Source: an uncultured Actinomycetota bacterium
Lineage (GTDB): Bacteria > Actinomycetota > Acidimicrobiia > Spongiisociales > UBA4744
NCBI GenBank assembly: GCA_963723165.1
Contig: CAVRPP010000010.1
Coordinates: 128,882 to 192,881 of the forward strand
Direction: 5' to 3'
DNA length: 64,000 nt
Below are positions 1 to 30,019 of the stretch, in pieces (the stretch's first letter is position 1; each line of letters starts with the position of its first letter). A program made the translations under genes and the position numbers. The notes under the pieces were generated by a model, which saw only the letters and a list, made by a program, of their open reading frames with translations, had not been told where the DNA came from and did not search any database.

Positions 1-157
1 TATCGACGGTGGCCATGATCGCCCTCATCCCATCAACCGCTGCCTGATCAACCATTTCCTTGTCTCCCCGGCCTTGCCAGCGGGCGGCAGCCATGGCAGC
101 CGCCTCCGTCACTCGCACCAGCTCCAGAGCAAGATTGCGTTCCGGTACCTCAGCCAT

Positions 158-1339
158 TCAGCCCTCCACGTTGATGATCAATGCGTCCCCCTGACCTCCG
201 CCCCCGCACAGCGAGGCCGCGCCGACACCGCCACCGCGGCGTCTCAGTTCATTCACCAGCGTAACGATCAGACGCCCCCCGGTCGCTCCGATTGGATGAC
301 CGAGCGCTACTGCACCTCCGTTGACGTTCACTTTGCTGTGATCGAGGCCGAGCATGTCAGCCGACCACAATGCCACCGCTGCGAACGCCTCATTGATCTC
401 AACCAGGTCGAGGTCTCCGGCGGACATTCCCGCCTTCTTCAGAGCTAGGGCCAGAGCCTCGGCGGGCCGTTCCTGCAGGGTGGCGTCGGATCCGGCGACC
501 TGGCCGTATGCAACGATCTCTGCCAGGATCGGGAGTCCGGCAGCCTTCGCAGCAGCGCGATCCGCAACGATGACGGCAGCGGCACCGTCCGAGATCTGCG
601 AGGCATTAGCGGCAGTCGTTGTTCCCTCGGGCGTGAACGCCGGGCGCAACTTGCTCAGTTTTTCGACGGTGGTCTCCGGCCGGATTCCCTCGTCGAGCTC
701 GACGGTGACGGGGTCGCCCTTTCTTTGCGGAACCTTCACCGGGACGATCTCACTCTCGAAGACCCCGGTCGCGACGGCCTCAGCGGCCCGGTGATGGCTT
801 TCGGCCGCCCACGCGTCTTGGGCCTCGCGAGTGATGCCAAGCTTGGCGTTCTTCAGGTCGGATGATTCACCCATCGCGCAGTGATCGAACGAACACCACA
901 ACCCGTCGTGCATCATGACATCGACGAGTTGCACATCGCCCATCCGCGCTCCCCATCTGGTGTTCGCCGTCAGATAAGGGGCGTTGCTCATACTCTCCAT
1001 ACCTCCGGCGACCACGAACGATGCCTCACCGAGTCGCACCGAGCGGTCGGCCATGGCGATGGCCGTCAAGCCGGAGAGGCACACTTTGTTGACGGTGGTC
1101 GCGGGAACAGTCATCGGAATGCCTCCCCGAACGGCCGCCTGGCGGGCTGTGATCTGTCCTTCGCCCGCCTGGAGGACCTGCCCGAAGATCACTTCATCAA
1201 CCATGGCAGGGTCCAGCCCAGATCGCCGGAGGGCTTCCCGGATGGCTTCACCACCCATCTCGACTGCACGCAGAGGGGCGAGGCCGCCCCCGAATTTACC
1301 GAGCGGCGTTCTGGCGATTCCGGTAACTACAGCACCCAT
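158..1339 (-). CDS. acetyl-CoA C-acetyltransferase (thiolase)
   Basis: 393-aa ORF; N-term 'VVTGIARTPLGKFGG' and C-term 'NVNGGAVALGHPIGATG...CGGGGQG' are thiolase hallmarks. Confidence 0.9.
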   Translation of the reverse strand: MGAVVTGIARTPLGKFGGGLAPLRAVEMGGEAIREALRRSGLDPAMVDEVIFGQVLQAGEGQITARQAAVRGGIPMTVPATTVNKVCLSGLTAIAMADRSVRLGEASFVVAGGMESMSNAPYLTANTRWGARMGDVQLVDVMMHDGLWCSFDHCAMGESSDLKNAKLGITREAQDAWAAESHHRAAEAVATGVFESEIVPVKVPQRKGDPVTVELDEGIRPETTVEKLSKLRPAFTPEGTTTAANASQISDGAAAVIVADRAAAKAAGLPILAEIVAYGQVAGSDATLQERPAEALALALKKAGMSAGDLDLVEINEAFAAVALWSADMLGLDHSKVNVNGGAVALGHPIGATGGRLIVTLVNELRRRGGGVGAASLCGGGGQGDALIINVEG

Positions 1340-1410
1340 AGCTCACTCCTCTCTGCTCCGCAGGCTACCCGCGGCATGGCTGATCAGGATCGGGCGGGTA
1401 GCCTGCCCGG

Positions 1411-1815
1411 ATGAGGTTGATCAACATCGATCACGTGGCGATCGCCGTGCATGATCTTGACGAGGCGCTCGACGAATACGAACGGCAATACCACGTGCGG
1501 GCTGCGTCCCGAGAGGTCATCGAGGAACAAGGGGTGGAGGAGGCCATGCTTCCCATCGGCGCCTCTCATGTGCAGTTGCTGGCGCCCCTGCACCCCGACA
1601 CGCCCGTTGGCCGCTTCCTGGCCAAACACGGAGAGGGCCTCCATCACATTGCCTATGCAGTTCCCTCGATAGACGAAGCTCTGCGGCATCTGGTCGACGA
1701 GGAGGTAGAGCTGATCGACGATCATCCGCGGGTAGGCGGAGGCGGGCACCGGATCGCCTTCGTGCATCCCCGGGCCCTGGCCGGTACGCTCATCGAACTG
1801 GTGGAACTGCAATGA
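1411..1815 (+). CDS. methylmalonyl-CoA epimerase (VOC/glyoxalase family)
   Basis: 134 aa; 'INIDHVAIAV...GEGLHHIAYAV...HPR' glyoxalase-fold epimerase pattern; ATG at 1411. Confidence 0.8.
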   Translation: MRLINIDHVAIAVHDLDEALDEYERQYHVRAASREVIEEQGVEEAMLPIGASHVQLLAPLHPDTPVGRFLAKHGEGLHHIAYAVPSIDEALRHLVDEEVELIDDHPRVGGGGHRIAFVHPRALAGTLIELVELQ

Positions 1816-2114
1816 GTGATCAAGAACCTGAGTCAGACACTTCACCCGGGGTTGAGAACACCGGAGAACTTGACGATTCCCAGATCGAGATTACCGGTGG
1901 CGCCGGTCCCTACGAAGCCGCCGCGATCATGGCTGCCATCGACGCCGCCTTGACCGAAGAGCTGGTCAACCTGGCCGTTCCCAGCCAACCGGACACACCA
2001 GGTGCCTGGTTCATGTCCGGCCGACCACACGTGGTCCTCGGTCCGCGAGTAACGTTCCAGGGTCTCTCACCCACCCCCGGTTCCGACGACGAAAACGGCG
2101 GCCCGGAGAACTGA
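1812..2114 (+). CDS. small acidic hypothetical protein, translationally coupled to epimerase (possible acyl-CoA carboxylase epsilon-like)
   Basis: ATGA overlap with the preceding stop; Ala-rich 'AAAIMAAIDAAL' segment. Function unknown. Confidence 0.45.
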   Translation: MSDQEPESDTSPGVENTGELDDSQIEITGGAGPYEAAAIMAAIDAALTEELVNLAVPSQPDTPGAWFMSGRPHVVLGPRVTFQGLSPTPGSDDENGGPEN

Positions 2115-2139
2115 GGCAAGGCCCAGCTCGCTTCGCTCG

Positions 2140-2176
2140 CAGTTCTCAGTTACCAGTTACCGGTTTCCAGTTCTGA
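2140..2176. repeat. degenerate heptamer tandem array (CAGTTCT/CAGTTAC)x5, preceded by TCGCTTCGCTCGC box
   Basis: read directly from the sequence; 7-nt periodicity. Confidence 0.8.
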
Positions 2177-2204
2177 TCCCATCGCCATCAGGTGGTATGC
2201 CTCA

Positions 2205-2253
2205 CTGGCTACTGGCTACTGGCTACTGGCTACTGGCTACTGGCTACTGGTTG
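2205..2253. repeat. perfect (CTGGCTA)6 heptanucleotide tandem repeat plus one variant unit
   Basis: 6 identical 7-mers from 2205 to 2246 then CTGGTTG; non-coding, ~45 nt upstream of the 2297 gene start. Confidence 0.95.
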
Positions 2254-2296
2254 CTGATTCCTCAATGCGGACCGGTATTAGACCGAAATACCTGTT

Positions 2297-3391
2297 GTGA
2301 ACGCCCCGTTGGCCGGTTCCGAGGTTCGTCGAACCGAGCGCGCCACCCATCTCGTCATCCTGATGGTGGTGCTCGGCTTGCTGCTGCCGTTGCTGCTCTG
2401 GCCCGGTATCGCCGCGCTGGTGTGGTCCCTGCGTTCCGAAAGCAAGCTCAGTCTGGTGGTCTACGACCAGACCGTTCCAGACGCTTCCTATCTGGAGCAC
2501 GCCTCGCTCGGGTTGGTGCTCGAGTACGAGAAGGTTCCCTTTGCCAAGGAGGATTCCTTCATAGGCGCAGGACCCGGTGGAGCCCCGCACGGGGCCTGGC
2601 CTGCAACCGCGCCGGATCTGATCATGCTGGTCGATGCCTACGGGGTCTACGTCGACGACGACGGCGAGGTATCGGACCAGGGCACTAATCGCATAACGGA
2701 TGCGTTCGGGGAAGAGGATGCCGACACCGTTCTGGACTGGGCCGCTTCGGGGACCATGGTATTTGGGGAGTTCAACATCTTTGGCGAACCGACGGCGTCT
2801 CCGGCGTCGCTGAGACTCCAGGGACTCTTCGGCGTGGAGCGAACCGGGTGGGCGGGGCGGCCCTTCGATGATCTGGCCGCCGTCCCTGAGCGTTTGATGG
2901 CCCTGGCCGGAGGGACCTGGGATTACACCGGTGGGGGCATCGTTCTGCTGGCGCCGGGACCGGAAGGTGCCTCGGTGGTGGTGCTCACCGCCGATGAGTT
3001 GGCGGATCCACTGCCGGTCGTTGAAGGGACCCTCCCCGGCTCGGGCCGGTCCGCGGCGGCGAGGCTGGATGGATGGTTCGAGATCATCGCCGCCGCTCCC
3101 GGAACAGAGGTAGACATGCTGATGCGGCTTCCGGTGAACGAATCCGGTCGTATTCTCCTCAGTCAGGCGGGCATACCGACGGAATGGCCCTTCCTGGTCC
3201 GTACCGAGAAATCCCTCTACCTGGCCGCCGATGCTTCCGAGAACAGTGTTGAGTTCCCATTGCGAAGGATGACAGGCTCTCCGGCCTTGATGCGGGTTCT
3301 GCCGCAGTCGCCGGAAACCGAATTCTTCTACAGGGTGTACATGCCCGTGGTGCGATGGCTCGTGGACAATGCCAACTCAGAGGACCGATAG
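2297..3391 (+). CDS. membrane-anchored hypothetical protein (N-terminal TM helix, large extracytoplasmic domain). First gene of a putative exopolysaccharide module
   Basis: GTG at 2297 (alternative ATG at 2363); hydrophobic 'LVILMVVLGLLLPLLLWPGIAALVW'; no recognisable catalytic motif. Confidence 0.6.
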   Translation: MNAPLAGSEVRRTERATHLVILMVVLGLLLPLLLWPGIAALVWSLRSESKLSLVVYDQTVPDASYLEHASLGLVLEYEKVPFAKEDSFIGAGPGGAPHGAWPATAPDLIMLVDAYGVYVDDDGEVSDQGTNRITDAFGEEDADTVLDWAASGTMVFGEFNIFGEPTASPASLRLQGLFGVERTGWAGRPFDDLAAVPERLMALAGGTWDYTGGGIVLLAPGPEGASVVVLTADELADPLPVVEGTLPGSGRSAAARLDGWFEIIAAAPGTEVDMLMRLPVNESGRILLSQAGIPTEWPFLVRTEKSLYLAADASENSVEFPLRRMTGSPALMRVLPQSPETEFFYRVYMPVVRWLVDNANSEDR

Positions 3392-3434
3392 CCAGTGCTG
3401 ATTCCAGATCGCATTCACAGTAAGGTTTGGCGTT

Positions 3435-3821
3435 GTGAGTAGACCGCAAGTCCTGGTTGCCGAGGATGATCGTGTGGTTTCACTGCTCATCGCTCGCAGC
3501 CTCGAAGGCGTTGGTGCGCAGATCACCACCGTATACGACGGTATCGAGGCCTTCGAAGTGGACGTCACCACGGATTTCAATCTGGTTTTGCTCGACCAGG
3601 TGATGCCGGGCCTTCTGGGGGTGGAGGTCCTGCAACGCTGGATCGACGACGGCAAGAACATGCCGGTCATCATGGTGTCGGCGCTCACCGCCGAAGAAGA
3701 CATCGTCCGCTGCCTGGAACTTGGTGCGGTCGACTTCATTCGTAAGCCGTTCAGCGTGAGGGAGTTGCTGGCCCGGGTGAAAGTGCACCTGCGCGCCCAG
3801 GGCTTCGAACCGGAGCTTTAG
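3435..3821 (+). CDS. stand-alone response-regulator receiver protein (CheY-like)
   Basis: 128 aa; canonical receiver residues are present: acidic pair 'EDD', phospho-Asp in 'LLDQVMPG', 'MVSAL', 'FIRKPF'; no output domain. Confidence 0.85.
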   Translation: MSRPQVLVAEDDRVVSLLIARSLEGVGAQITTVYDGIEAFEVDVTTDFNLVLLDQVMPGLLGVEVLQRWIDDGKNMPVIMVSALTAEEDIVRCLELGAVDFIRKPFSVRELLARVKVHLRAQGFEPEL

Positions 3822-3826
3822 GGCGT

Positions 3827-3888
3827 CCTCCCCCTGACGAGCGGAGCTCGTCGGTGAGGGGGAGGTGTCGAGACCGGATAGGTCTCGG
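3827..3888 (+). terminator. two consecutive GC-rich hairpins downstream of the receiver gene
   Basis: CCTCCCCCTGACGAGC..GCTCGTCGGTGAGGGGGAGG followed by CGAGACC-GGATA-GGTCTCG; no U-tract. Confidence 0.4.
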
Positions 3889-4104
3889 TGGAGGGGGGAT
3901 CGTTCTCACCACGGTGCATTGGGTTTCCGCATGTATTTGCCCCCGCGAACGCATCAATAGGCCTCCTTCGCGTGCCGATGCAATAAGCCAGGAGGAATTC
4001 ATGTCGTGCGCCCTCAACTTGTGGACGCGTCGGCCTGCCGTGCTCTTCAGCACCGGCGAGGCCGCCTGCTCGCGCGCCGCCTCCGTTTCGGGGTGGGGTG
4101 AATC

Positions 4105-5283
4105 GTGAGCGAACTCATGCTTCCCATCCTTGCCATCCTCGGCGCAGTAACTGCAATTGCCGGTTCGAGCCTCTTTGTCTACAAACTGATCCGCCATCGC
4201 CGTGAACGGTTCGATGAGTTCCGGCGGGCCTCGTACATCGGGGCGCTGAGCGAGATGGCCACCCGCTCCGGGTATCCCCTGGAGATGTTGCGCCGCTGGT
4301 CACCCGATGGTGTGTTCCTCGAGACCCTGCTCGAGTTCTTGAAGTTCCTGCAGGGTGGTGAGCGTCAGAACCTCCTCCGTCTGGCCAGGGAGTTGGGGAT
4401 CGTCGAACGTTTCGTCACCGAGCTCCGCACCTCAAAAGGCCGCAACACCCGCGTGCAGGCGGTCAAAGCCCTGGCCGAGTTTGCCGATCCGGCCTCCGCC
4501 GATGCGCTGCTTGAAGCGCTCGGGGACAAGGTTGATGAGATCCGCTGGCAGGCCGCCGGAGCTCTTGCCAAGATCGGGGATCCGCGAGCCGTCCGGCCCT
4601 TGCTCGAGACTCTGCAAACGGAATCGGAGTGGGGGGCCAGCCGGATCGGCGACACGCTGGTGTCCTTCGGAGCGGCTGCCGTCCCCGACCTGGCTCGATA
4701 TGCCCTGCTCAGCGATCCCAACCTATCTTCGAACACCGCCCATCTGCCGCTGATTGCGAGAGTTCTTGGGATAATCGGCGACGTTCGCGCCGAGCCGGCA
4801 ATGCTGTCCGCGCTCGAGTCGGATGAGGCCGAATTGCGGATCCGGGCGGCCGCCGCCCTCGGAACAGTCGGGTCGCTGGCTTGTGTTCCTGCCCTGCTCA
4901 GGGGTCTGCATGATTCCGAGTGGGAGGTGCGGGCCCAAGCGGCTGCCGCCCTCGGGCGGCAAATGGACGGACGGGCCATCGAAGGCCTCCGGGGAGCAAT
5001 GCGCGACGAGAACTGGTGGGTCCGCCAAAACAGCGCTCAGGCTCTCTCGGAGATCCCTGGTGGCGTCGTCGCTCTGGTCGAGGGTCTCGAGGACGAAGAT
5101 CGGTTCGCCCGCGACGCTTCCATCGAGCGCCTCATGGCAATGGGTCTGGTCCGCAAGGCGGTTGACGCGGTCAAGGGTGGAGCGGGCGACGATCAAGACC
5201 GCCATATCGTGCGCCAGCTCGTCGTGTTGGGCAGGGGTGAATACCTGCAGGACAAAGCAGCGAACGAAAAGGTGGCCGGATGA
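4105..5283 (+). CDS. HEAT/PBS-lyase-repeat protein with N-terminal TM helix
   Basis: GTG at 4105; N-terminal hydrophobic helix; repeated 'VRxxAAxALGxxGDxRAVxPL' HEAT-like units; stop overlaps the next start (ATGA at 5280). Confidence 0.75.
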   Translation: MSELMLPILAILGAVTAIAGSSLFVYKLIRHRRERFDEFRRASYIGALSEMATRSGYPLEMLRRWSPDGVFLETLLEFLKFLQGGERQNLLRLARELGIVERFVTELRTSKGRNTRVQAVKALAEFADPASADALLEALGDKVDEIRWQAAGALAKIGDPRAVRPLLETLQTESEWGASRIGDTLVSFGAAAVPDLARYALLSDPNLSSNTAHLPLIARVLGIIGDVRAEPAMLSALESDEAELRIRAAAALGTVGSLACVPALLRGLHDSEWEVRAQAAAALGRQMDGRAIEGLRGAMRDENWWVRQNSAQALSEIPGGVVALVEGLEDEDRFARDASIERLMAMGLVRKAVDAVKGGAGDDQDRHIVRQLVVLGRGEYLQDKAANEKVAG

Positions 5284-6692
5284 GTTTCATTGAACTGTTC
5301 AGCTACGTGATCCTGGCCTACTTCATCGTGATGGAGCTGCAACTGCTGTTCGTGAGCGCAGTGTCGTTCTTTGCGCTTCGCCGGGACCACTTCACGTCGT
5401 CGCACGGCCGGCTCCACGACATGCTGACCTCCGACACGACGCCGCCCGTTTCGATCATTATTCCGGCCTACAACGAGGCTGCCGGGATAACGGAATCGGT
5501 ACGGTCGATGGCCATGCTGAAGTACACCCGGAAAGAAATCATCGTCGTCAACGACGGCAGTTCCGATGAGACGGTGAAGCGGATGATCGACGAGTTCAGG
5601 ATGGAACCCATTGACGTTCCGTTCCGGCCCAGCCTCGAAACCGAAGTCATCCACCGCGTATACAAATCTCGACTCCCGTTGCCGATCGTTCTGGTCGACA
5701 AGGAAAACGGAGGCAAGGGAGACGCGATCAACGCGGGAATCAACATCGCCCGTTATCCGTATGTGATGGCTACCGACGCCGATATGGTGCTCGATGACGA
5801 GTGCCTGCTGCGGGCCGTCCGGCATTTCGTCGAGGATCGCTCGCGGACCATTGCCGTTGGGGGCAATGTGCGTCCTTTGAACGGCTGTGAGGTCCGGAGG
5901 GGCAAGGTCACCAATGTTTCGCTGCCCCGTCGCCCCGTCGAACTGGCACAGGTCGTCGAATACATTCGCGGGTTCCTGTCGGCCCGGCCGGGTTGGTCGG
6001 CGCTGGGCTCGCTCCTCATCGTGTCCGGTGCCTTCGGGATCTTCCAGAAAGCGGCGGTGATCGAAGTCGGTGGGTTCCGGCATGGTCATCTGGGCGAGGA
6101 CATGGAGCTGACGATGCGGCTGCACCGTCACTTCCGCAAGCGGCGGATTCCCTACCGGATCGTCTATGCCCCCGACGCGGTGGCATGGACGGAAGTGCCC
6201 GTAACCCGTCAGGTCCTGAGGAAACAGCGGATCCGCTGGCACCGCGGGTTGATGCAGGTCATCTGGCAGTACAAAGCCATGCTGTTCAACCCGCGTTATG
6301 GGGTCGTCGGCATGCTCGGCTGGCCCGCCTTCGTCGCGTTTGAGTTCGTAGCTCCGATCGTCGAGTTCGTCGGGTGGTTGGTGATACCGGCGTCGATCAT
6401 TCTGGGGTTCCTGAACTGGGAAATCGCCCTGCCCCTGCTGCTCGTCTCGCTCATTCTCGGTGCAGCCAACTCGCTGATAGGGCTCTTTCTCGACGAGCGC
6501 TTCGGCTACTACAACGCGCCGGGCGAGGCCGCCAAACTGCTGGTCTATTCGCTCGGCGAGCAACTGGGGATGCGACAGCGCACCGTATGGTGGCGGGTGA
6601 GAGCCATGTTCTGGAATCCGCGCTTCAAGACCTGGGGTGACATGCAGCGCACCGGCGTCGGGAATCTCGGTTCGGAGAAGGGTTCGGGCTAA
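5280..6692 (+). CDS. processive family-2 glycosyltransferase (PgaC/IcaA/NodC/cellulose-synthase-like polysaccharide synthase)
   Basis: 470 aa; 'IIIPAYNE', 'VNDGSSD', 'DAD', 'GEDMELTMRL', 'QRIRWHRG' (QxxRW) motifs; TM helices at the N-terminus and as a C-terminal bundle. Confidence 0.85.
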   Translation: MSFIELFSYVILAYFIVMELQLLFVSAVSFFALRRDHFTSSHGRLHDMLTSDTTPPVSIIIPAYNEAAGITESVRSMAMLKYTRKEIIVVNDGSSDETVKRMIDEFRMEPIDVPFRPSLETEVIHRVYKSRLPLPIVLVDKENGGKGDAINAGINIARYPYVMATDADMVLDDECLLRAVRHFVEDRSRTIAVGGNVRPLNGCEVRRGKVTNVSLPRRPVELAQVVEYIRGFLSARPGWSALGSLLIVSGAFGIFQKAAVIEVGGFRHGHLGEDMELTMRLHRHFRKRRIPYRIVYAPDAVAWTEVPVTRQVLRKQRIRWHRGLMQVIWQYKAMLFNPRYGVVGMLGWPAFVAFEFVAPIVEFVGWLVIPASIILGFLNWEIALPLLLVSLILGAANSLIGLFLDERFGYYNAPGEAAKLLVYSLGEQLGMRQRTVWWRVRAMFWNPRFKTWGDMQRTGVGNLGSEKGSG

Positions 6693-6701
6693 ACAGCAAA
6701 C

Positions 6702-6743
6702 GAGTTCCCCGGTTACTGGTTCGCAGTTCGCAGTTCCCAGTTC
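6702..6743. repeat. heptamer tandem array (NCAGTTC-like)x6 in a convergent intergenic region
   Basis: GAGTTCC CCGGTTA CTGGTTC GCAGTTC GCAGTTC CCAGTTC. Confidence 0.8.
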
Positions 6744-6777
6744 GCAGGAATGGTGTGCCTTCAGTGACGACTGACGA

Positions 6778-8346
6778 CTACTTCATCCGCTTCCGCAGCT
6801 CGTGCAGTTCGGGTGAGCGCATCAGTCGGGAAACGGCCAGGTAGACGGCCATCACAATGGCGGCACCAATCGCCACCAGTCCGAGTGAACCCCAGAACCC
6901 GGGTAGTTCGTCTCCCGAAATCCACTGCACCGCCAGCCAGGCAATCGGTGCGGAAACTGCCACCCCGACTGAACCTCTCACCAGGGCGCCGGCAATGGCG
7001 GAGACCCCCTCGCGACCCGCTCTCGAGTGCCAGGCGGTCCCCAGGACGATGGTGTAGAGAACCATTGCCAGGGTGCTGGCCACGGCGAAACCGGGCTCAT
7101 CGAAGCGGCTCAACCACCAGTACAGACCGATGGCTACGACGGTGCCGGCAGTTCCTATGAATACCGGGGTCCACATCTGGCGGCGAGCATAGAAGGCCCG
7201 GGAGTAGATCTGGTGGGCACCCCAGGCAGGGACCGAGAGGCCGTAGAACACCAGCAGCGTTGCCGTGAGCACGGTGTCGCTCGGACCGAACTCGCCCCGC
7301 TCGTAGACGACCCGTACGGCCGGTTGGGAAAGAGCGAGGATGGCGGCGACGGCCGGGGCGCTGACGAAAATGGTGTACCGGATCGTCCTGGCGACGGTGG
7401 CTGCCATCTCCTGAAGCTTGCCTTCTTCGACCAGTCTGGCCAGATAGGGATAGGCAGCCACGCCCGCAGTTTGGGCGATGACCCCGATGGGCAGCATGTT
7501 CAAACGGCGTGCGTAGGTGAGCGCAGAGATGCCACCTGCCTCGGTCAGCTGGCCGAAGAGCCGGACGAACTGTTCGTCGAGCACAGCGATCGATTGCCCG
7601 AGCATCAGAGGGAGGGCCAACAGCAAGTACTCCCGGAGAGCGGGATGCCGGAGCGGAACGCCGTTCACCCACCGCAGACCGGCCCGGCGGGCCCCGTACC
7701 ACTGCAGAGCGAAGTTGCCGACAAAGGCCCCCCCGACCGCACCCCAGGCGAAACCGGCAGCTGAGGTGCTGCCGATGGCCCACGAAATGAGTCCACCGGC
7801 GATGATGCCGAGGTTGTAGATGACCGGTGCGACGGCGGGGATGGCGAAACGCTGATGAGCGTATTGGACGGCCATCCACAGCGAACCAAGCACAAAGAAG
7901 ATCTGGGCGGGGAGGACGATGCGAGTAAGCCGGGTCACCTCGGCAGCCTGGGAGACGTCGAAGCGCGGGTACACCAGGTCCGTCAGCGATCCGGCGAAGA
8001 TCATCGCCAGTACCGTCAAGCCGAGCATCGCCAGTGCCACCGGACGAAAGACGGCGGCGAAAGCCCGATGTCCTTCCTCCACGTCGCCCCGCACCATGTG
8101 GCGAGTGATGATCGGGATGAAGGTCACCGTGAGGTACCCGCCGGCCATCAGATAGAACAGGACGTCGGGGATGACGAAGGCTGCCTGGTAGGCATCCCCG
8201 GCGGCGGTGTTGCCCAACAGGCCTGCCAGTGCGACGTTGCGAAGCATGCCGAGGACACGGGAAAGGAGGATCCCGGCGGATACGACCAGAGCGGCTTTGC
8301 CCATCCCTCCTGTCGATCCTCCGCTGTTGTCGCCGGGGTCGCTCAT
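6778..8346 (-). CDS. murJ: lipid II flippase MurJ (MviN)
   Basis: 522 aa; polytopic; 'ALVVSAGILLSRVLGMLRNVALAGLLG...DAYQAAFVIP' is a typical MurJ N-terminus. Confidence 0.85.
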   Translation of the reverse strand: MSDPGDNSGGSTGGMGKAALVVSAGILLSRVLGMLRNVALAGLLGNTAAGDAYQAAFVIPDVLFYLMAGGYLTVTFIPIITRHMVRGDVEEGHRAFAAVFRPVALAMLGLTVLAMIFAGSLTDLVYPRFDVSQAAEVTRLTRIVLPAQIFFVLGSLWMAVQYAHQRFAIPAVAPVIYNLGIIAGGLISWAIGSTSAAGFAWGAVGGAFVGNFALQWYGARRAGLRWVNGVPLRHPALREYLLLALPLMLGQSIAVLDEQFVRLFGQLTEAGGISALTYARRLNMLPIGVIAQTAGVAAYPYLARLVEEGKLQEMAATVARTIRYTIFVSAPAVAAILALSQPAVRVVYERGEFGPSDTVLTATLLVFYGLSVPAWGAHQIYSRAFYARRQMWTPVFIGTAGTVVAIGLYWWLSRFDEPGFAVASTLAMVLYTIVLGTAWHSRAGREGVSAIAGALVRGSVGVAVSAPIAWLAVQWISGDELPGFWGSLGLVAIGAAIVMAVYLAVSRLMRSPELHELRKRMK

Positions 8347-9203
8347 CGGCTCGCCACCAAATCACGATGAATGTCTCGCAATTCCTCCAGGACCGAATCC
8401 GGAACCTCGAGGTCTCCGCGTCCTGATCCCAATTCCAGCCCCTCTTTGTACGAACCGTGGTAGTCGGAGCCACCCGACGGGACCAGACCGAACGAGCGGG
8501 CGATGTGGGCGAGTTCCTCCCGCTGTTCCGGCAGGTAGTCGCCGTAGTAGGCGTCGATTCCAACCAGCCCGGCTGCCGACAGGCGACGATAGGTCCCTGC
8601 GAATTCGGCCGCCGAGGTGTGACCGAGAGTGTGGGGATGGGACAGGATCGAGACGCCACCCGATGCCCGGGCCAGGCCGATGGCCTCCTCAGGTTCGAGC
8701 CGGAAGCGGGGGACGTAGGCAGGTGCCTGATTCCCCAGGTAGTCCGTGAAGGCGGTCGGGATGTCGGCCACAACTCCTTTGCGGACCAGGACGGCCGCAA
8801 AATGGGGTCTTCCAACCACACCAACCTGTGACTCCGCAAAGACTTCGTCCATGGATATGTCGATACCCAGCTGGCGGAGACGGTCGGCGATCCGGTAGTT
8901 CCGCTGAGATCGGCTCGCCTGCAGTTCGCCCAACCGATCCTGCAGCGGCCCGTCGCCCGGCGATACGAACAGGACCACCAGGTGCAGGGCTCCCGCGGTC
9001 CACTCGCAGGAGATTTCTACACCCGGGATCAGTTCGATGGGAAGCTGCTCGGCGGCCTGCTCGGCCGGGGGGATGCCTTCCAGGGTGTCATGGTCGGTGA
9101 GGGCCACGGCCTTCAGATTCTTGGCGACCGCCTTGCGGACCAATTCGGCCGGTTCGTCGGACCCGTCGGAACGGTTGCTGTGGGTGTGTAAATCAACGGC
9201 CAT
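8343..9203 (-). CDS. PHP-domain metal-dependent phosphoesterase
   Basis: 'VDLHTHSNRSDGS' PHP motif; 286 aa. Confidence 0.8.
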   Translation of the reverse strand: MAVDLHTHSNRSDGSDEPAELVRKAVAKNLKAVALTDHDTLEGIPPAEQAAEQLPIELIPGVEISCEWTAGALHLVVLFVSPGDGPLQDRLGELQASRSQRNYRIADRLRQLGIDISMDEVFAESQVGVVGRPHFAAVLVRKGVVADIPTAFTDYLGNQAPAYVPRFRLEPEEAIGLARASGGVSILSHPHTLGHTSAAEFAGTYRRLSAAGLVGIDAYYGDYLPEQREELAHIARSFGLVPSGGSDYHGSYKEGLELGSGRGDLEVPDSVLEELRDIHRDLVASR

Positions 9204-9311
9204 AGTCGGTAGGAGCGTAACGCAGGCTCCTGGACCGCAATGGGTTCGTTTGCGCTCGGCTCCTTGTTGCTGGTTGCCTGCCGTTCGTACCGGAGCGCGG
9301 AGAACGAAGAA

Positions 9312-10112
9312 CTAGGAACCAATAGCGATTTCGACCTTTTCGATGTAGACCGTTTCCAGGGGCAGGCTCTGTTCGGTTGCCGTCGTCCCGTCTCGCCCGG
9401 TCAGCTGCACCGACCTGATCCGGTCGAGGGTGTCATCGGAGTCGACGGCGGTACCGAAAACCGAAAAGGCGTTGTCGAGACCGGCGTCTTCGCCGTCAAC
9501 GACGAAGAACTGGCTGCCGGTCGAATTGGCGCCACTGTTGGCCATCGCCAGGACGCCGCGGCCATACGTGAACCCGTCCTCCGGGAACTCATCGGCGATC
9601 AGGTAGCCGGGGCCACCGTTTCCGATGGCCGTTGGGTCGCCACCCTGGATGGCGAACTCGGGGACGATGCGGTGAAAGACCGACCCGTCGAAGTAGCCCT
9701 GCCGGGCCAGGAACACGAACGAGTTGACGGTCTCGGGAGCGATTGAGGGGTCGAGTCGGGCAATGATGTCACCGCACGAGGTGGTGATCGTGGCCGTGAC
9801 TGTGGCATCGGGCGCAATGCCCTGGTCTTCGGGGGCGGTGAAGGTCATCTCCGTCACCGGGTCCGGGGCCTCCGCTTCGCAGGCGGTCGGTTGGGAGCGA
9901 TAGCCGTCGTAGTCGACAGGGATGGTCGTCGTCGCGGTCGGCTCCGAACTGTCGAACAACGTTGGCAGGACGAGCAGGACGGCCAGCACACCTACCAGGA
10001 CGGTCAGCTGGGTCGCTCGCTTCCGCAGCTTGCGTTGCCTGGCCAGCTTCTCTTGCTCTTCTCGCTTCTTGGCACGGTTTTCCCGTTGTCGTTCACGCTT
10101 GTTGGTCGGCAT
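9312..10112 (-). CDS. peptidyl-prolyl cis-trans isomerase (cyclophilin type) with N-terminal basic/TM segment
   Basis: '[15 protein letters not shown]...[15 protein letters not shown]' cyclophilin core; start chosen at the internal ATG (10112) because aspartokinase begins at 10188 on the other strand. Confidence 0.8.
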
Positions 10113-10187
10113 AGCGACAGGACTATAGGCCTCTTCTTGGAGGGGATCGTCGGGACGGAGCCAGACCGGCGGTACACTCCCGGCGCG

Positions 10188-11414
10188 ATGTCCTTGATAG
10201 TCCAAAAATACGGCGGCACATCGGTCGCAGACGGTGAGCGGATCAAGCGAGTGGCAGCCCGCGTTGCCGGTACCCGGCGGGCGGGCCACGACGTGATTGT
10301 CGTTGTCTCGGCAATGGGTGGGACCACCGATGAATTGATCGACCTGGCTCGCCAGGTCAGCTCGTCACCACCCGGCCGGGAGATGGACATGCTGCTCACC
10401 GCCGGGGAGCGGATCACGATGGCGCTGCTGGCCATAGCGATCCACGAAGAAGGGGTCGAGGCGGTCAGCTTCACGGGTTCCCAAGCAGGCATCCTGACGG
10501 ATTCGAGCCACGGGCAGGCGAAGATCCAGGAGATTCGCAATTTCCGGGTCGAAGAGAGCCTCAAAGAAGGCAAGGTGGTCATCGTTGCCGGGTTCCAGGG
10601 AGTTGACCCGCAGTCAAAGGATGTCACTACCCTCGGCCGGGGCGGCTCGGACGCAACTGCCGTAGCCCTGGCTGCCGCCAATCACGCCGATGTGTGCGAG
10701 ATCTATACCGACGTAGACGGGGTCTTCACGGCCGATCCACGCATCGTCCCCGACGCCCGCAAACTCGACGAGGTTTCGTTCGAAGAGATGCTGGAACTGG
10801 CGGCGACGGGCGCCAGGGTCCTGATGCTCCGGTCGGTGGAATTCGGCCGCAATTTCAACGTTCCCCTCCATGTGCGCTCGTCATTCCACGACGGCCCCGG
10901 GACCTGGGTGAAGGAGACAACAATGGAACAGGCGATCATCAGCGGAATATCGCACGACACTTCGGAAGCGAAGGTCACGGTCCGGGGTGTTCCGGATCGT
11001 CCGGGCGTCGCCGCTGCCTTGTTCGAGCCTCTCGCTCTCCGGGAAGTCAACGTCGACATGATCGTGCAGAACGTGTCGAAGGACGGGACCACCGACATCA
11101 GCTTCACTGTTCCCAAGGAGCATGCGGCTAGGGCCATGGAGGTGGTGGAGAAGGTTGTTCCGGAGATCGATGCGGCCGGTGTCGATATCGACGAGGAAGT
11201 TGCCAGAGTGTCCGTGGTGGGAGCGGGCATGAAATCGCACCCGGGAGTGGCGGCCAGAATGTTCCGGGAATTGTCCGCCAACGGGATCAACATCGAGATG
11301 ATCTCCACGTCGAGCATCCGCATATCCTGTGTTGTCGCCCTGGAACAGATCGAAGAAGCAGTGCGGGTCCTGCATGCTGCTTTCGAACCGCCGACCATGG
11401 TGGGGGATCTATGA
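10188..11414 (+). CDS. ask: aspartate kinase
   Basis: '[13 protein letters not shown]', ACT domains at the C-terminus; followed by asd with an ATGA overlap. Confidence 0.9.
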
Positions 11415-12424
11415 GCACCAAACGAACTGCCGTTGTCGGCGCTACCGGAGCCGTCGGCCGGGCAATGATTTCCATCCTCGAGGAGCGGTCGTTCCCCGTC
11501 TCCGATCTCCGCTTGCTGGCGTCATCGCGATCAGCGGGCAGCAAAGTCGAAACGCGCTGGGGGAAGATCGAGATCGAAGATCTTGCCACCGCCGACCCGA
11601 CGGGTATCGAGATCGCCCTCTTTTCCGCCGGAGGCGATCGTTCCCGTCAGTTTGCCCCCGCCTTCGCGAAGGCCGGAGCGGTGGTGATCGACAACTCCTC
11701 TGCCTTCCGCATGCAACCCGAGGTTCCACTCGTGGTTGCCGGAGTCAACGACGCAGCCGCCGTCCGGCATGAAGGCATCATCGCCAATCCCAATTGCACA
11801 ACGATGGACCTGATGATGGCGGTGGCGCCGCTCCATCGAGCCGCCGGGTTGCGGTCGATGATTGCAACTTCCTATCAGTCGGTGTCGGGGTCCGGCCAAA
11901 AGGGCATGGACGAATTGACCAGGCAGATGGGTGAGCTCGGGGCCGACCTTCCCGCTCTGGTCAACGGTGGTTGGCAAGACCCTGGCGGCGACGTGTATCC
12001 GCGGCCCATCGCCTGGAATGTGATTCCCTTCGCCGGCAGCTTGCAGAGTGAGGGCTATACCGACGAGGAGTGGAAGTTCGTCAATGAGAGCCGCAAGATC
12101 CTCGATATTCTGGATCTCAAGGTTGAACCGACCTGTGTGCGGGTGCCGGTGATGGTCGGCCACGGGATCGCGGCCAGCCTGTGGTTCGACCGACCGGTCT
12201 CACCAGAAGAGGCAGAGGTGCTGCTGGTCGAGGCCGGGGGGGTAGCGGTCTGGAAGGACAAGGTGCCCACTCCGCTCGATTCGGCCGGTATCGATGACGT
12301 GCTGGTCGGTCGCATCCGGGCGACAGTGGGCACTCCCGGTGGTATCAACCTGTGGGCGGTTGGCGACAACCTCCGCAAAGGAGCCGCCCTCAACGCAGTG
12401 CAGATCGCCGAGCTGCTCGTCTAA
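11411..12424 (+). CDS. asd: aspartate-semialdehyde dehydrogenase
   Basis: 'VVGATGAVG...IANPNCTTM...SYQSVSGSG' motifs. Confidence 0.9.
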
Positions 12425-17850: not shown

Positions 17851-19653
17851 TCACTCTGCGCGCACGCTCCTGAGATCCCCCGACCGGATGGTCACTCTCT
17901 GAGAATCCAGGTATTCCAGGAGCGGCACCGCGTATTTGCGCGAAAGCCTGAGAGCGTCCCGAAAGTCAGCCACGGTGAACTGCTCCGGCAGCGTATCCAG
18001 TTGCCGGACGATGTCGTCGAGTTGCTCCTGAAGGTAGATCAGGTCTTCCCCGATTCGGACTACCCGGTCCTGGCGGACCAGCGCATGGAGCAACTCGCGG
18101 TCGATTCCCATCTCCTTGATGCGAGGAACTGCCCAACCCGACGCAACGAGGGTGGCTCGCAGGCTCTCCCAGGCTGCCTCCTGGCTGCTGGTCAGGGTGC
18201 CGCCGAAGCCCTCCTCGGCCACCGTGGCGCCGTCGTCGCGCAGCTTGGTCGAAGCCCCGACCAGGGCTTCTACGACGGCGGGATCCACCGACAGGAGGCT
18301 GGCCAGGCTCGCTTTCGGCATACCTGGTCGGAGCGGGTTTTCGCGGTGGAAAGAACCTACGGTGCTGAGAGCACGACCGGACAATTCAGCAGCCGATTCC
18401 TGCGAGAGGGCGAGAGTTCCGACAATCACTGCTCCGGCCGGGACGCCTCCCCCGGAGTCCGCGGCGAGACGCGCCAGGGATTCACTGCCCCGGACCCCGA
18501 GGAGCGTCGTAGCGATGTCATCAGCCGAGCCTTCGATGGCTCCGGGCAGCACTTCGGCGGAGCGGCGGAGATCGGAGATCCCAATGGATGGGTGGGGATC
18601 GAGCACCCGGCCCCCTCCGACAACCGATCGCCGGCCAACCTCGCGAACAATGAAACGGTCACCGACCTTGAGGGGAAGAGGGTGCGACAACTGCAGAAGG
18701 GCGGGTCCGGAGCCTTCCAGTGCGGAATCCTGGACCAGGCGGATCCGGACCGGCCAGGCGCCGCTGCCGAGGTGTAGGTGGTAGGCGCCTCGATTAGTGA
18801 GGGGTTCCTCGAGGTAGCGGGCGGTGGTGATCTGTACGAGGACGGTGTCGGTTGTCTGCCAATCATCCGGCCGGCCCAGCATCGCACCCCGGGTCACCTC
18901 GGCCCTGTCCAAACCGACCACGTTCACGGCTACGCGATTGTGAGGGGTTACCCGGACGTGATCTCGCTCGTGACTCTGCAAATTGCGGATCCGGCCTCGC
19001 ATGTTTCCAGGCCAGGTCTCAACCTGATCGCCAACAGCCAGAGAACCATCGAGCAGGGTTCCGGTCACGACCGTGCCTGCCCCGGCGATCGTGAACGAAC
19101 GATCGACCCACAAGCGCGGCCGGCCACTATCGATCAGGGAAGGAGAGACCTTCCGGATGGCCAAGTCCAGCGCACGCCGCACATCATCGATTCCCTGGTT
19201 CGACAGCGCCGAAACGGGAACGACCGGGCTTCCGGCGAGTGATGTGCCCGCCACCTTCTCGTCCACCTCGAGGCTCACGAACTCCATTAGCTCGTCATCG
19301 ACCCGGTCGACTTTGGTGATGGCCACGACGCCTTCTGCGACCCCCAGGAGGTCGAGGACGGCCAGGTGCTCCTCGGATTGCGGCATCCAGCCTTCGTCTG
19401 CGGCGACGACAAAAAGTGCGACGTCAATGGCCTCGGACCCCGCCAGCATGTTCTTGATGAACCGCTCGTGGCCCGGAACATCAACGAACGAGATCTCGGT
19501 TCCGTCGGCGAGTGTGGTCCACGCGAAGCCGAGGTCGATGGTGAGCCCTCGGCGCTTCTCCTCGTCCCAGCGGTCAGGATCCCGTCCGGTCAGCGCCTGG
19601 ACCAATGTCGACTTGCCGTGGTCGACGTGTCCGGCTGTGCCTACGACCGGCAT
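17851..19653 (-). CDS. selB: selenocysteine-specific elongation factor SelB
   Basis: 'GTAGHVDHGKSTL...DVPGHERF' GTPase plus long C-terminal winged-helix region; 600 aa. Confidence 0.85.
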   Translation of the reverse strand: MPVVGTAGHVDHGKSTLVQALTGRDPDRWDEEKRRGLTIDLGFAWTTLADGTEISFVDVPGHERFIKNMLAGSEAIDVALFVVAADEGWMPQSEEHLAVLDLLGVAEGVVAITKVDRVDDELMEFVSLEVDEKVAGTSLAGSPVVPVSALSNQGIDDVRRALDLAIRKVSPSLIDSGRPRLWVDRSFTIAGAGTVVTGTLLDGSLAVGDQVETWPGNMRGRIRNLQSHERDHVRVTPHNRVAVNVVGLDRAEVTRGAMLGRPDDWQTTDTVLVQITTARYLEEPLTNRGAYHLHLGSGAWPVRIRLVQDSALEGSGPALLQLSHPLPLKVGDRFIVREVGRRSVVGGGRVLDPHPSIGISDLRRSAEVLPGAIEGSADDIATTLLGVRGSESLARLAADSGGGVPAGAVIVGTLALSQESAAELSGRALSTVGSFHRENPLRPGMPKASLASLLSVDPAVVEALVGASTKLRDDGATVAEEGFGGTLTSSQEAAWESLRATLVASGWAVPRIKEMGIDRELLHALVRQDRVVRIGEDLIYLQEQLDDIVRQLDTLPEQFTVADFRDALRLSRKYAVPLLEYLDSQRVTIRSGDLRSVRAE

Positions 19654-23968: not shown

Positions 23969-24742
23969 ATGAAGGTTGAGTGCGTCCTCGCCCCGAACCC
24001 GGGCCCGTTCACGGGTCCCGGGACAAACACCTATCTGCTCGCCTCCGGCGCTGAGGTGCTGCTGATCGATCCTGGACCGCTCGATCGCTCACACGAAACA
24101 GCGATCATGGACACGGTTGGAGACCGCCTGCCCGTGGGGATTCTCGTCACCCACACCCACGAGGATCATGCCCCTCTGGCGAATCCACTGGCAGCCAGCC
24201 TGGGTGTTCCCACCTACGGAAACGCGCCCGGACCGGGCTTCAAGCCCGACCTGCTCCTTGCCGATGAAGACCTGGTGGGGTTCGGAAATCAACAAGTGCA
24301 GGCGCTGCACACGCCCGGGCACAGCCGCGACCATCTCTGTTTCCTGGTCGGGGACAGTCTCTTCACCGGGGATCACATCATGGGCGGATCGTCGGTTGTC
24401 GTTGAGGACATGACCGCCTACCTGGAAAGCCTGCGGAGGCTGCAACAGTTGGATCTGGCGAGGCTGTACCCCGGGCACGGACTTGTCATGGAGGATCCCG
24501 CCGGTATCGTGGCCTCGTACATTGAGCACCGTCTCGAACGAGAGCGACAAGTGCTTGCGGCCGTGAAGACTGGAGCGAGCACCGTCATGGAGATCGTCCA
24601 GACCGTCTATGCGGATATTGATTCCGCCCTCCATCCTCTGGCAGCCATGTCAGTACGAGCCCATCTGGTCAAGCTCGCCGCGGATGGCACCGTACGGCTC
24701 AACGGCGATGACGACGCCCATCCGGCTGGAGGCACTTCATGA
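23969..24742 (+). CDS. MBL-fold metallo-hydrolase
   Basis: 'THTHEDH' metal-binding motif; 'HTPGHSRDH'. Confidence 0.8.
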   Translation: MKVECVLAPNPGPFTGPGTNTYLLASGAEVLLIDPGPLDRSHETAIMDTVGDRLPVGILVTHTHEDHAPLANPLAASLGVPTYGNAPGPGFKPDLLLADEDLVGFGNQQVQALHTPGHSRDHLCFLVGDSLFTGDHIMGGSSVVVEDMTAYLESLRRLQQLDLARLYPGHGLVMEDPAGIVASYIEHRLERERQVLAAVKTGASTVMEIVQTVYADIDSALHPLAAMSVRAHLVKLAADGTVRLNGDDDAHPAGGTS

Positions 24743-25950
24743 AGGGGCTCCTTCGTCTGCTGGGCGCACTGTTGGTGGTGGCACTGATTGCCCTCCCGGC
24801 GGCCGGGCAGGTGACCCCGCAAGATATTGCCGAGTCGGAGGCCGAGCTGGTTGCTCTGCGGGCCGAGACTGATCAACTGGCCGCCGAATACGAAGCTGCG
24901 GTAACCCGCTCGGCTCAGCTCGAGGATCAGGTGGCAGGTCTCGAGGCTGCGACTCAGGATTCGCAGATCGAACTGGGGATAACTCGCCAATTGGTCCGGG
25001 AACGCGTGGTCGAGATGTACATCGAGTCGAGCACCGCCCAGATTTCGTTGCTCTTTGTAGAGGATCTCGATGGTGGCATCGAGGTCGCCATCGGATATCT
25101 CGAGCAGTTGGGAACTTCCGACACGAAGCTTCTCCGGGATCTAGAGATCATCAAGACAGAGTACGAGCGTCAGCTCGCCGAGCTGGAGACCGCCAAAACT
25201 GAGCAGGAAACGGTGGTATCGGACCTCGCCGCGGTCGGCACTCAGCTGAGCGCCCGCCTGGAGGTGGCCCAGAACAGCTACGTGAACCTGGTGGCACAGC
25301 GGGCCGCCGAAGAACGAGCCCGGCTGGAGGAAGAAGCACGGCAACGGGCGATTGAAGAAGCCCGGCTGGCTGCCGAAGAAGCTGCCCGGGCGGCAGCCAC
25401 GACGACCACGGTCGCACCGACGACGACCAGTGCCGCCGGGACCACGACGACGGCGGCTGGTGAGACCACGACGACGGCAGCCGGTGAGACCACGACGACG
25501 GCAGCCGGTGAGACCACGACCACGACGGCACCTCCGCCCCCACCATCTGGAAAGGCCTGTCCGGTTGACGGGTTCACCAGCTTCACCGACACGTGGGGAG
25601 CGCCACGCTCCGGGGGCCGATCCCATCAAGGCGTCGACATGCTGGGAGCTCGATGGACCCCCCTTGTTGCTCTGGAATCCGGCACGATCCACCGGATGGG
25701 CAATGGAGGTCTCGGTGGCATCACCATCTGGCTGCGGGGCGCCACCGGCCACCGGTACTACTACGCCCATCTGGAAGCGTGGGCCGACGGGCTGAAGGTC
25801 GGCCAGTCCGTCCAGGTCGGCGAATTGATCGGGTACATGGGCACATCGGGGAACGCTCCCGACTACATCCCGCATGTGCACTTCGAGTATCACCCGGGAG
25901 GCGGAGCGGCCGTCAATCCATACCCGCTGGTCAAAGGTCTGTGCGGCTAG
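24739..25950 (+). CDS. M23-family peptidase with N-terminal coiled-coil and Thr-rich linker
   Basis: 'HQGVDM...HVHFEYH' LytM motifs; coiled-coil region; ATGA overlap with the previous gene. Confidence 0.85.
   Translation: MKGLLRLLGALLVVALIALPAAGQVTPQDIAESEAELVALRAETDQLAAEYEAAVTRSAQLEDQVAGLEAATQDSQIELGITRQLVRERVVEMYIESSTAQISLLFVEDLDGGIEVAIGYLEQLGTSDTKLLRDLEIIKTEYERQLAELETAKTEQETVVSDLAAVGTQLSARLEVAQNSYVNLVAQRAAEERARLEEEARQRAIEEARLAAEEAARAAATTTTVAPTTTSAAGTTTTAAGETTTTAAGETTTTAAGETTTTTAPPPPPSGKACPVDGFTSFTDTWGAPRSGGRSHQGVDMLGARWTPLVALESGTIHRMGNGGLGGITIWLRGATGHRYYYAHLEAWADGLKVGQSVQVGELIGYMGTSGNAPDYIPHVHFEYHPGGGAAVNPYPLVKGLCG
25456..25530 (+). repeat. 24-bp in-frame tandem repeat x3 (encodes GETTTTAA units) inside the M23 peptidase gene
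   Basis: ggtgagaccacgacgacggcagcc repeated. Confidence 0.8.
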
Positions 25951-28358: not shown

Positions 28359-28392
28359 TCACGCCCAGCAGACTGAGAACGAGGAGTATCCG

Positions 28393-29915: not shown

Positions 29916-30019
<104 letters not shown>

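Follow-up and report, generated by a model that had tools for sequence, protein, structure and literature searches.

The window analysed here is a stretch of 64,000 nucleotides from an uncultured Actinomycetota bacterium of the class Acidimicrobiia (contig CAVRPP010000010.1), and it carries on one strand four consecutive genes which encode a membrane protein (UNK), a stand-alone CheY-like receiver (REC), a HEAT-repeat protein (HEAT) and a family 2 glycosyltransferase (GT2). An initial annotation of this DNA had read the four open reading frames (ORFs) as a putative exopolysaccharide (EPS) synthase module, and each of them was recovered where it had been placed (Table 1). We regard it as probable, with some reserve, that the region encodes a machine for synthase-dependent production and export of a glycan, in which a PgaC/IcaA-like processive GT2 is joined by a HEAT subunit, a phospho-receiver as input and UNK at the outer face. 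The processive GT2 engine is the known part of this arrangement, and the accessory and regulatory set is the new part.

To compare gene neighbourhoods, we collected relatives of GT2 from GTDB species representatives. Among 183 relatives, the best 80 were fetched, nearly all of them labelled Acidimicrobiia or Actinomycetota, and five extra loci were added by look-ups of individual homologues; 83 non-duplicate loci were compared. The homologues with 89-93% identity belong to metagenome-assembled genomes (MAGs) of uncultured Acidimicrobiia or Actinomycetota, and the source records annotate the proteins in generic terms ('glycosyltransferase family 2 protein', 'hypothetical protein'). When every ORF of at least 90 amino acids in the 83 loci was assigned to a gene family by all-against-all clustering, the only families common across the loci were GT2 (82 loci), HEAT (79) and REC (71), and the co-conservation of HEAT with GT2, on which the proposed module depended, was found in 79 of 82 loci. 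The next commonest clusters (MurJ, RF-1, thiolase and others) occur in at most 22 loci each and mark different genomic contexts, such as thiolase and MurJ in the window and locus L003, ABC permeases and RF-1 in L001, and extracytoplasmic function (ECF) sigma and anti-sigma factors in L004. A functional link to MurJ or thiolase was rejected, as this synteny is limited to one subclade. In tblastn searches, HEAT lay directly upstream of GT2 on the same strand in essentially all loci not cut by a contig end, REC lay directly upstream of HEAT in most loci, and the pattern spans GT2 identities from 93% to 50%. UNK was found in 16 of the 83 loci, always immediately upstream of REC; in L023 a UNK fragment lies downstream of GT2. 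Because the other three families alone recur across the loci, the conserved core is, judged by gene content, REC-HEAT-GT2, and UNK is a clade-restricted accessory in Acidimicrobiia. The cassette also varies in form and number: HEAT is extended to 608 residues in L029, and several MAGs contain two paralogous cassettes (e.g. L024 and L047, L037 and L054, L031 and L055). No second cassette lies within the window, where a candidate pair of 128-residue and 505-residue ORFs at 27972-29910 proved to encode RidA and aldehyde dehydrogenase.

Table 1. Coordinates of the module and associated features in the window
Feature	Position (nt)	Strand	Description
UNK	2297-3391	+	364 residues; single-pass protein, no Pfam or NCBIfam match; accessory subunit of the module
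UNK membrane anchor	2336-2434	+	transmembrane segment, residues ~14-46
UNK ectodomain		+	predicted extracytoplasmic alpha/beta and beta-rich domain
UNK C-terminal helix		+	residues 339-360
REC	3435-3821	+	128-residue stand-alone CheY-like receiver; no output domain
REC phospho-acceptor	3594-3596	+	D54
Inverted repeat	3827-3865	+	G+C-rich; directly after the REC stop codon, within the REC-HEAT spacer (3822-4104)
HEAT	4105-5283	+	392 residues; N-terminal transmembrane helix, then HEAT/PBS-lyase-type repeats; proposed scaffold or regulatory subunit
Coupling signal	5269-5283	+	Shine-Dalgarno-like AAGGTGG (5269-5275) and ATGA stop/start overlap (5280-5283)
GT2	5280-6692	+	470 residues; predicted membrane-embedded processive-type glycosyltransferase
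GT2 D92	5553-5555	+	in DGSSD
GT2 DAD	5775-5783	+	residues 166-168
GT2 GED	6093-6101	+	residues 272-274
GT2 QRIRW	6225-6239	+	residues 316-320
GT2 WGDMQRTG	6633-6656	+	residues 452-459
Heptamer array	2147-2172		CAGTTAC, 3.7 copies
Heptamer array	2204-2250		ACTGGCT, 6.7 copies
Heptamer array	6719-6747		GTTCGCA, 4.1 copies

The translational coupling of HEAT and GT2 that had been proposed for the window is real, since the stop codon of the former and the start codon of the latter share the letters 'gccggATGAgtttc' behind a Shine-Dalgarno-like AAGGTGG. The estimated distance from the HEAT stop to the GT2 start is zero or less in 53 of 80 loci; its median is -1 and its maximum 86 bp. Hydropathy analysis of HEAT gave one N-terminal transmembrane (TM) helix at approximately residues 1-29, in agreement with the membrane anchor assigned before. 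The protein matched the Pfam families HEAT_2 (score 119.5 against a cut-off of 27.7), HEAT (70.7 against 23.5) and HEAT_PBS (68.6 against 20.9), and its PDB sequence matches were alphaRep and HEAT designs. Based on these repeats, we propose that the soluble part is a cytoplasmic alpha-solenoid of the HEAT/PBS-lyase type. A role as a bilin lyase or NblB was rejected, with scores of 60.7 against 300 for NblB, 52.8 against 330 for CpcE and 34.3 against 220 for CpcF, and the likeness to these proteins is, as far as the profiles tell, at the level of the repeats only. A match of HEAT or UNK to a characterised unrelated family, which would have told against the initial annotation, was not obtained in Pfam, NCBIfam and PDB sequence searches.

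Outside Acidimicrobiia, the parts of the module are found joined in single chains. The UNK family profile was run against 1.84 billion cluster representatives and retrieved 487 of them, 376 at E<=1e-10, so that the family extends far beyond Acidimicrobiia. Domain scans of the longer UNK-profile matches identified GT2-UNK fusions (P0263, of 832 residues, P0182 and P0279) and a HEAT-GT2-UNK fusion of 1377 residues from Heliophilum fasciatum (P0281, WP_131919220.1). A search seeded with P0281 gave eight HEAT-GT2 single chains of approximately 950-1000 residues (P0316-P0321, P0323, P0324), and a further protein of 1140 residues, P0322, is a HEAT-GT2-REC fusion whose receiver (residues 1008-1116) begins about 10 residues past a WGKMERK motif and which has no GGDEF domain. 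Aligned along the entire window GT2, the GT2 portions of the fusions show 36-40% identity and retain both the insert and the C-terminal WGxMxR described below; the distant fusions score 110-119 bits on the PgaC/IcaA profile TIGR03937 (cut-off 422.3). The triple fusion P0281 has one extra TM segment between the HEAT region and the N-terminal TM segment of GT2, and therefore HEAT and the glycosyltransferase (GT) domain would stay in the cytoplasm and the UNK domain would lie outside. On an aquatic metagenome contig, genes for a TPR protein, HEAT and a GT2-UNK fusion follow one another. In Brassicibacter mesophilus (Clostridia), a long UNK of 1110 residues, HEAT and GT2 are encoded in the order of the window, and the long UNK gene (L094, 7001-10333) lies between a MoxR-DUF58-BatA-VWA (GATase1_like) operon and HEAT-GT2. 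Considering that each pairing of the window module's parts exists as a fusion elsewhere and that order and strand are conserved across differing flanks, there is strong evidence, at the level of sequence, that the parts act together as one machine, and the complex is well supported.

The synthase itself matched the Pfam families Glycos_transf_2, Glyco_tranf_2_3, Glyco_trans_2_3 and Chitin_synth_2. The full motif set ascribed to it was found, with D92 in DGSSD, D166-A-D168, G272-E-D274 and Q316-R-I-R-W320, and these motifs are invariant in an alignment of 16 family members with 54-77% identity. Hydropathy likewise gave the expected layout of an N-terminal TM segment and C-terminal TM segments. 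The top curated profile was TIGR03937 (PgaC_IcaA) with 146.9 bits and an E-value of 7.9e-43, which does not reach the cut-off of the family, and the NodC equivalog TIGR04242 gave 41.8 bits against a cut-off of 550. No C-terminal PilZ domain, BcsB partner or TIGR03030 match at the BcsA cut-off of 699 bits was found for GT2 and its module, and neither a small PgaD/IcaD protein nor a PgaB/IcaB deacetylase is encoded in the module or by its neighbours. GT2 is thus set apart from PgaCD/IcaAD, BcsAB and NodC, because the scores are far under the cut-offs and PgaD, PgaB, PilZ and BcsB are absent; no curated Pfam or NCBIfam family covers GT2 or HEAT at equivalog level.

In profile alignments, GT2 matched hyaluronan synthase (HAS) over residues 57-389 and BcsA over residues 249-396. 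The AlphaFold2 model of GT2 (predicted local distance difference test, pLDDT, 75.3) contains helices at residues 3-42, 310-330, 338-375, 380-407 and 414-444, so that the long TM helix at the N-terminus is followed by a GT-A domain, by the interface helix that carries QRIRW and by the C-terminal helices. In this model the GT domain packs on a bundle of TM and interface helices that would form a translocation channel. When the model was compared with the PDB by Foldseek, Chlorella virus HAS ranked first with TM-scores of 0.61-0.64, Xenopus HAS1 reached up to 0.66, and the HAS matches ranged over 0.57-0.66 across approximately 460-490 columns. BcsA and the fungal and oomycete chitin synthases (Chs1/Chs2) followed, also as full-length matches. 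With the best profile from PgaC_IcaA, profile matches to HAS and BcsA, and full-length model matches to HAS, BcsA and chitin synthase, the placement of GT2 among the processive synthases by the initial annotation was borne out.

Two elements distinguish the family. The GT-A domain has a family-specific insert at residues 100-135 (window approximately 5577-5684), MIDEFRMEPIDVPFRPSLETEVIHRVYKSRLPLP, which breaks the Pfam GT2 match into two stretches, is kept in the Firmicute fusions and forms an additional beta-hairpin in the model, on which a partner may dock. The invariant W452-G453-x-M455-x-R457-x-G459 falls within the last 20 residues and is kept in the distant fusions too. The gating-loop motif of BcsA is FxVTxK. 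In Chlorella virus HAS the gating loop is WGTRG (W454, G455, R457), and its mutation abolishes activity (PMC11750622). Resemblance to WGTRG and the position after the first C-terminal TM pair suggest, by analogy, that WGxMxR of GT2 plays a gating-loop role. The GT2 chain ends right after this motif and HAS has two further TM helices after its gating loop; in the fusions, the motif is followed by the UNK TM helix or, in the case of P0322, by the receiver. The tail was also considered as PilZ-like, but this was rejected, as the tail is too short and has no RxxxR motif, and a PDB sequence search with the tail gave zero matches.

REC matched all 111 positions of the PF00072 (Response_reg) model with 82.8 bits, where the cut-off is 30.2, as expected for the stand-alone receiver described initially. 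The description as canonical and phosphorylatable also held, since D12, D54 and K104-P105 each reach a conservation of 90% or more among 73 cassette receivers, and on account of these residues the cassette receiver looks competent for phosphorylation.

UNK had been described as a 364-residue membrane protein with no recognisable domain, and both parts of this description needed revision. The protein is membrane-anchored but not polytopic, as the hydropathy profile shows one strongly hydrophobic N-terminal segment, with a basic stretch before it, and a soluble domain of about 300 residues. No Pfam match was obtained at E<=5 for any of the 23 UNK family members, nor an NCBIfam match for the long and fused forms, and PDB sequence searches with UNK and the long form P0215 gave no match; the predicted fold, however, is GATase1-like and faces outward. 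The model (pLDDT 79.6, predicted TM-score 0.80) has an alpha/beta domain and a beta-rich part between a TM helix at the N-terminus and another helix at the C-terminus, and it resembles the flavodoxin-like alpha/beta fold of class I glutamine amidotransferases (GATase1). Further down, its structure matches include the GH42 middle domain, the exopolysaccharide deacetylase Agd3, PelA, IFT52-N and OST48/WBP1 of the oligosaccharyltransferase. A Cys-His-Glu triad or GATase profile was sought among the 22-23 UNK homologues and not found, and because the family has no invariant cysteine, UNK is, by its alignment, not an amidotransferase. The motifs DxYGVY, EFN and GWxGR are kept across phyla and point to a putative binding or catalytic surface. 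Approximately fifteen representatives of the family are 1000-1110 residues long (P0189, P0199, P0210, P0215, P0218, P0222 and others), with the UNK domain at the N-terminus and then about 700 residues that have no Pfam, NCBIfam or PDB sequence match.

From the gene structure, domains, motifs, TM segments, co-conservation, coupling, fusions and predicted folds, all of which were observed or computed, we infer the physical contacts, the phospho-control and its direction, the HEAT scaffolding, the TM helices supplied in trans and the identity of the product. In the proposed mechanism, GT2 would polymerise a UDP-sugar at the cytoplasmic face and thread the chain through its own TM bundle. With low confidence, we take the sugar to be most likely an N-acetylhexosamine and the polymer a beta-glycan, on the grounds that PgaC/IcaA and Chitin_synth_2 are the nearest profiles and that GT2 has the WG...R motif. 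HEAT would be an obligate subunit, kept stoichiometric by translational coupling, whose N-terminal helix packs on the synthase and whose alpha-solenoid is placed beside the GT domain in the cytoplasm. REC would be the input of the system: once a kinase from another locus has phosphorylated D54, REC would dock on the cytoplasmic face of HEAT and GT2, control the gating loop and switch the synthase post-translationally, which is the role of PilZ with cyclic di-GMP (c-di-GMP) in BcsA and of PgaD with c-di-GMP in PgaCD. Such direct control by a receiver has a precedent in EpsW-EpsZ, where EpsW, a single-domain receiver, binds an EPS enzyme directly when phosphorylated and thereby activates it (bioRxiv 10.1101/2025.09.10.675344). 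UNK would act as the partner at the outer face, topologically like BcsB or PgaD, with its TM helix against the synthase and its GATase1-like ectodomain receiving or guiding the emerging polymer. More tentatively, and with the odds somewhat against it, these features could define a so far unrecognised class of synthase-dependent glycan secretion system in several phyla, in which a truncated HAS-like GT2 is completed by the TM helices of HEAT and UNK in trans and a phosphorylated receiver directly gates the WGxMxR loop in place of c-di-GMP with PilZ or PgaD.

Several observations weigh against the receiver-controlled complex that we favour. In none of the 83 loci is the cassette accompanied by a kinase gene, and genes for a precursor, a deacetylase, a hydrolase or a small PgaD-like protein are not associated with it either. 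The sole histidine kinase among the scanned window ORFs (GAF-GAF-HisKA-HATPase_c, 625 residues, 39006-40883, + strand) lies 32 kb from the receiver, and nothing was found that pairs it with REC. In the subclade of L001 and L038-L041, not even a profile search found a receiver with HEAT-GT2, and L028 has REC-GT2 without HEAT; therefore neither REC nor HEAT is absolutely required. UNK is missing from 67 of the 83 loci, and UNK homologues in Neobacillus and in a Sericytochromatia MAG have no GT2 neighbour. The C-terminal WGxMxR region of GT2 was modelled at pLDDT <50 and could not be aligned to any solved gating loop. Furthermore, Heliophilum fasciatum (L086, 5821-8001) and the metagenome contig L089 (4912-6978) encode a GGDEF+REC protein directly upstream of the fusion, and c-di-GMP may for this reason be an ancestral or additional signal. 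The receivers of these Firmicute-type partners are about 23% identical to the cassette receiver and score below an unrelated OmpR-type receiver on the cassette profile, so that orthology of the two was rejected. Owing to this low identity and low score, receiver-type regulators seem to have been recruited to the synthase more than once, as stand-alone proteins, fused in cis or joined to GGDEF, and the recruitment may have been independent. In the receiver-less subclade (L001/L002, L038-L041), an ORF of 115-124 residues without a Pfam match lies upstream.

The GGDEF+REC partners bear most directly on the explanation that survives best beside ours, namely that the complex is the same but responds in truth to c-di-GMP or another nucleotide, which HEAT or GT2 would bind, with REC as a remnant or adaptor of a REC-GGDEF partner, perhaps a phosphate sink or localisation factor. 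In the proteins of L086 and L089, which also carry a DivIVA or an ODP/metallo-beta-lactamase domain, the GG[DE]EF signature reads, by eye, GPKFA or GPNFA, as in degenerate-GGDEF c-di-GMP receptors, and these proteins may accordingly be putative receptors of that kind rather than cyclases. As is generally known, most characterised synthase-dependent systems are under c-di-GMP control. However, the statement of the initial annotation that GGDEF, EAL and PilZ are lacking was upheld by Pfam and NCBIfam scans of the module and its immediate neighbours, and across the 83 Acidimicrobiia loci the module and its conserved neighbours are free of GGDEF, EAL, PilZ and MshEN domains. The conserved phospho-acceptor residues argue for real phosphorylation, and in P0322 a receiver is fused directly to the synthase without GGDEF. 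We consider it unlikely that c-di-GMP or another nucleotide is the true signal in place of the receiver.

Somewhat less likely still is that GT2 makes short oligosaccharides in the manner of NodC, or an envelope glycoconjugate, and that the cassette serves wall or membrane homeostasis. NodC-type enzymes have the same motifs and topology, the module adjoins MurJ in the window, and GT2 is short, with 470 residues, and ends after WGxMxR without the last TM pair of HAS. The NodC profile, however, scored far below that of PgaC_IcaA (41.8 and 146.9 bits), the adjacency to MurJ is limited to one syntenic subclade of 20 loci with other contexts elsewhere, and the linked outward-facing domain of approximately 300-1000 residues fits the handling of a secreted polymer. 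Finally, although proteins with HEAT repeats or receiver domains are widespread and take part in many functions, and UNK homologues exist away from GT2 genes, the notion that an ordinary GT2 lies by chance beside unrelated HEAT, REC and UNK genes is effectively refuted by an order kept in about 79 of 82 loci across differing flanks, by overlapping stop and start codons, and by several independent gene fusions that join all four parts in other phyla.

Beyond the coding sequences, the module had been described as bracketed by arrays of heptamer repeats. These arrays are real, but they are not boundaries of the module, as intergenic arrays occur lineage-wide. A further array lies in the window at 29989-30019, and the closest relatives (L006-L012, L017) have numerous arrays, built of differing 7-nt units and spread over many gaps between genes, the REC-HEAT spacer among them. 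Copy numbers range from 3 to 24.6, with the units CAGTTAC, ACTGGCT, GTTCGCA, ACTGGAA and others; L006 has arrays at 3612-3913, and L009 and L010 have them at many sites. Such arrays were seen only in the window and its closest Acidimicrobiia relatives, and they resemble the short tandemly repeated heptamers (STRR) of cyanobacteria. The idea that the arrays delimit the module or a mobile element was rejected, because they are lineage-wide and intergenic and their unit varies, and they are unrelated to the function of the module.

The REC-HEAT spacer is 283 bp long in the window and 249-421 bp in the window clade, the one clade where it is long, against a median of 43 bp, and this length is explained by the arrays that sit in the spacer in the relatives. 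The inverted repeat after REC has arms at 3827-3838 and 3854-3865 that are 92% complementary, and it may be a terminator without a U-tract or an attenuator. UNK-REC and HEAT-GT2 may be separate transcription units in the window clade. A riboswitch in the spacer was sought with Rfam at permissive E-values over window positions 1-12000, where no Rfam family matched; a sigma-70 promoter scan found none, and a terminator scan stayed at chance level. An 84-residue ORF at 3854-4108, which lies in the variable spacer, was rejected as a gene for want of support.

The module is flanked on one side by genes for a thiolase, a methylmalonyl-CoA epimerase and a 100-residue ORF, and on the other side, on the opposite strand, by genes for MurJ, a PHP phosphatase and a cyclophilin. 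Elsewhere in the window, 17851-19653 (- strand) encodes the selenocysteine-specific elongation factor SelB, and the organism therefore probably makes selenoproteins. At 25420-25526, within a Peptidase_M23 gene (ORF 24739-25950, + strand), there is a 24/48-bp tandem repeat, GACCACGACGACGGCAGCCGGTGA, which is present in about 3.5 copies and is likely to encode a repetitive linker.

Among known systems, PgaCD of E. coli and IcaAD of staphylococci are closest by curated family, and they share with GT2 the N- and C-terminal TM segments and the motifs D, DxD, xED and QxxRW. For full activity, PgaC and IcaA need a small membrane partner in trans. In contrast, the window module has no PgaD/IcaD, PgaB/IcaB deacetylase or PgaA porin, its partners are a HEAT solenoid, a receiver and a protein with a GATase1-like ectodomain, and its GT domain carries the insert. 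BcsA-BcsB likewise combines a channel-forming processive GT2 with a TM-anchored extracytoplasmic partner, and the predicted structures are similar; its own regulatory domain, PilZ, is cytoplasmic and near the gating loop. Class I HAS (Chlorella virus HAS, Xenopus HAS1) gave the best whole-chain structural matches, and the W-G...R of the window GT2 after the first C-terminal TM pair recalls its essential WGTRG gating loop, but HAS is a single polypeptide, whereas the window GT2 has separate or fused partners, and the sequence identity is 16-19%.

The regulatory side has other parallels. In B. subtilis YdaKLMN and Listeria PssCDE, synthases are paired with degenerate GGDEF receptors. NfrB is a synthase with a dedicated c-di-GMP receptor, an MshEN domain (PMC8669469). 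These three systems resemble the window module in that a GT2 synthase and a locally acting regulator are encoded in the same operon; unlike them, the window module has no nucleotide-second-messenger domain, and they are not known to have a HEAT subunit. EpsW-EpsZ of Myxococcus xanthus also links a phosphorylated single-domain receiver to an enzyme of polysaccharide biosynthesis, but the target of EpsW is a monotopic phosphoglycosyl transferase of a Wzx/Wzy pathway, and there is no HEAT protein. Helical-repeat partners of GT2 synthases are found in eukaryotes, where the armadillo-repeat protein CSI1/POM2 of plants works with CESA and the Sel1-repeat protein Chs4/Skt5 of yeast with Chs3. By analogy, HEAT may be compared to these cytoplasmic proteins, which bind and activate or position a membrane GT2 synthase, although the repeats are of other types and the sequences are unrelated. 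We know of no bacterial helical-repeat partner of a processive GT2 synthase. The view of the module as an undescribed system also agrees with our search of the full-text literature, which leaves most subscription journals uncovered and in which no HEAT partner of a GT2 synthase was found; what it brought up was the EpsW precedent and the NfrB system. To our knowledge, every well-studied synthase-dependent EPS system of bacteria (cellulose, poly-N-acetylglucosamine, alginate, Pel) is switched by c-di-GMP, and each has its own accessory subunits.

The cassettes are present in at least 80 GTDB species-representative genomes, dominated by Acidimicrobiia, a class that is abundant in marine, soil and wastewater samples and has few cultured members. 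The parts are also fused in Bacillota (Heliophilum) and in metagenome lineages, which suggests a general solution, and related modules are carried by the cultured Heliophilum fasciatum and Brassicibacter mesophilus. If the more tentative reading, in which a phosphorylated receiver gates the synthase, is true, two-component phosphorylation would be a direct post-translational switch of a processive polysaccharide synthase.

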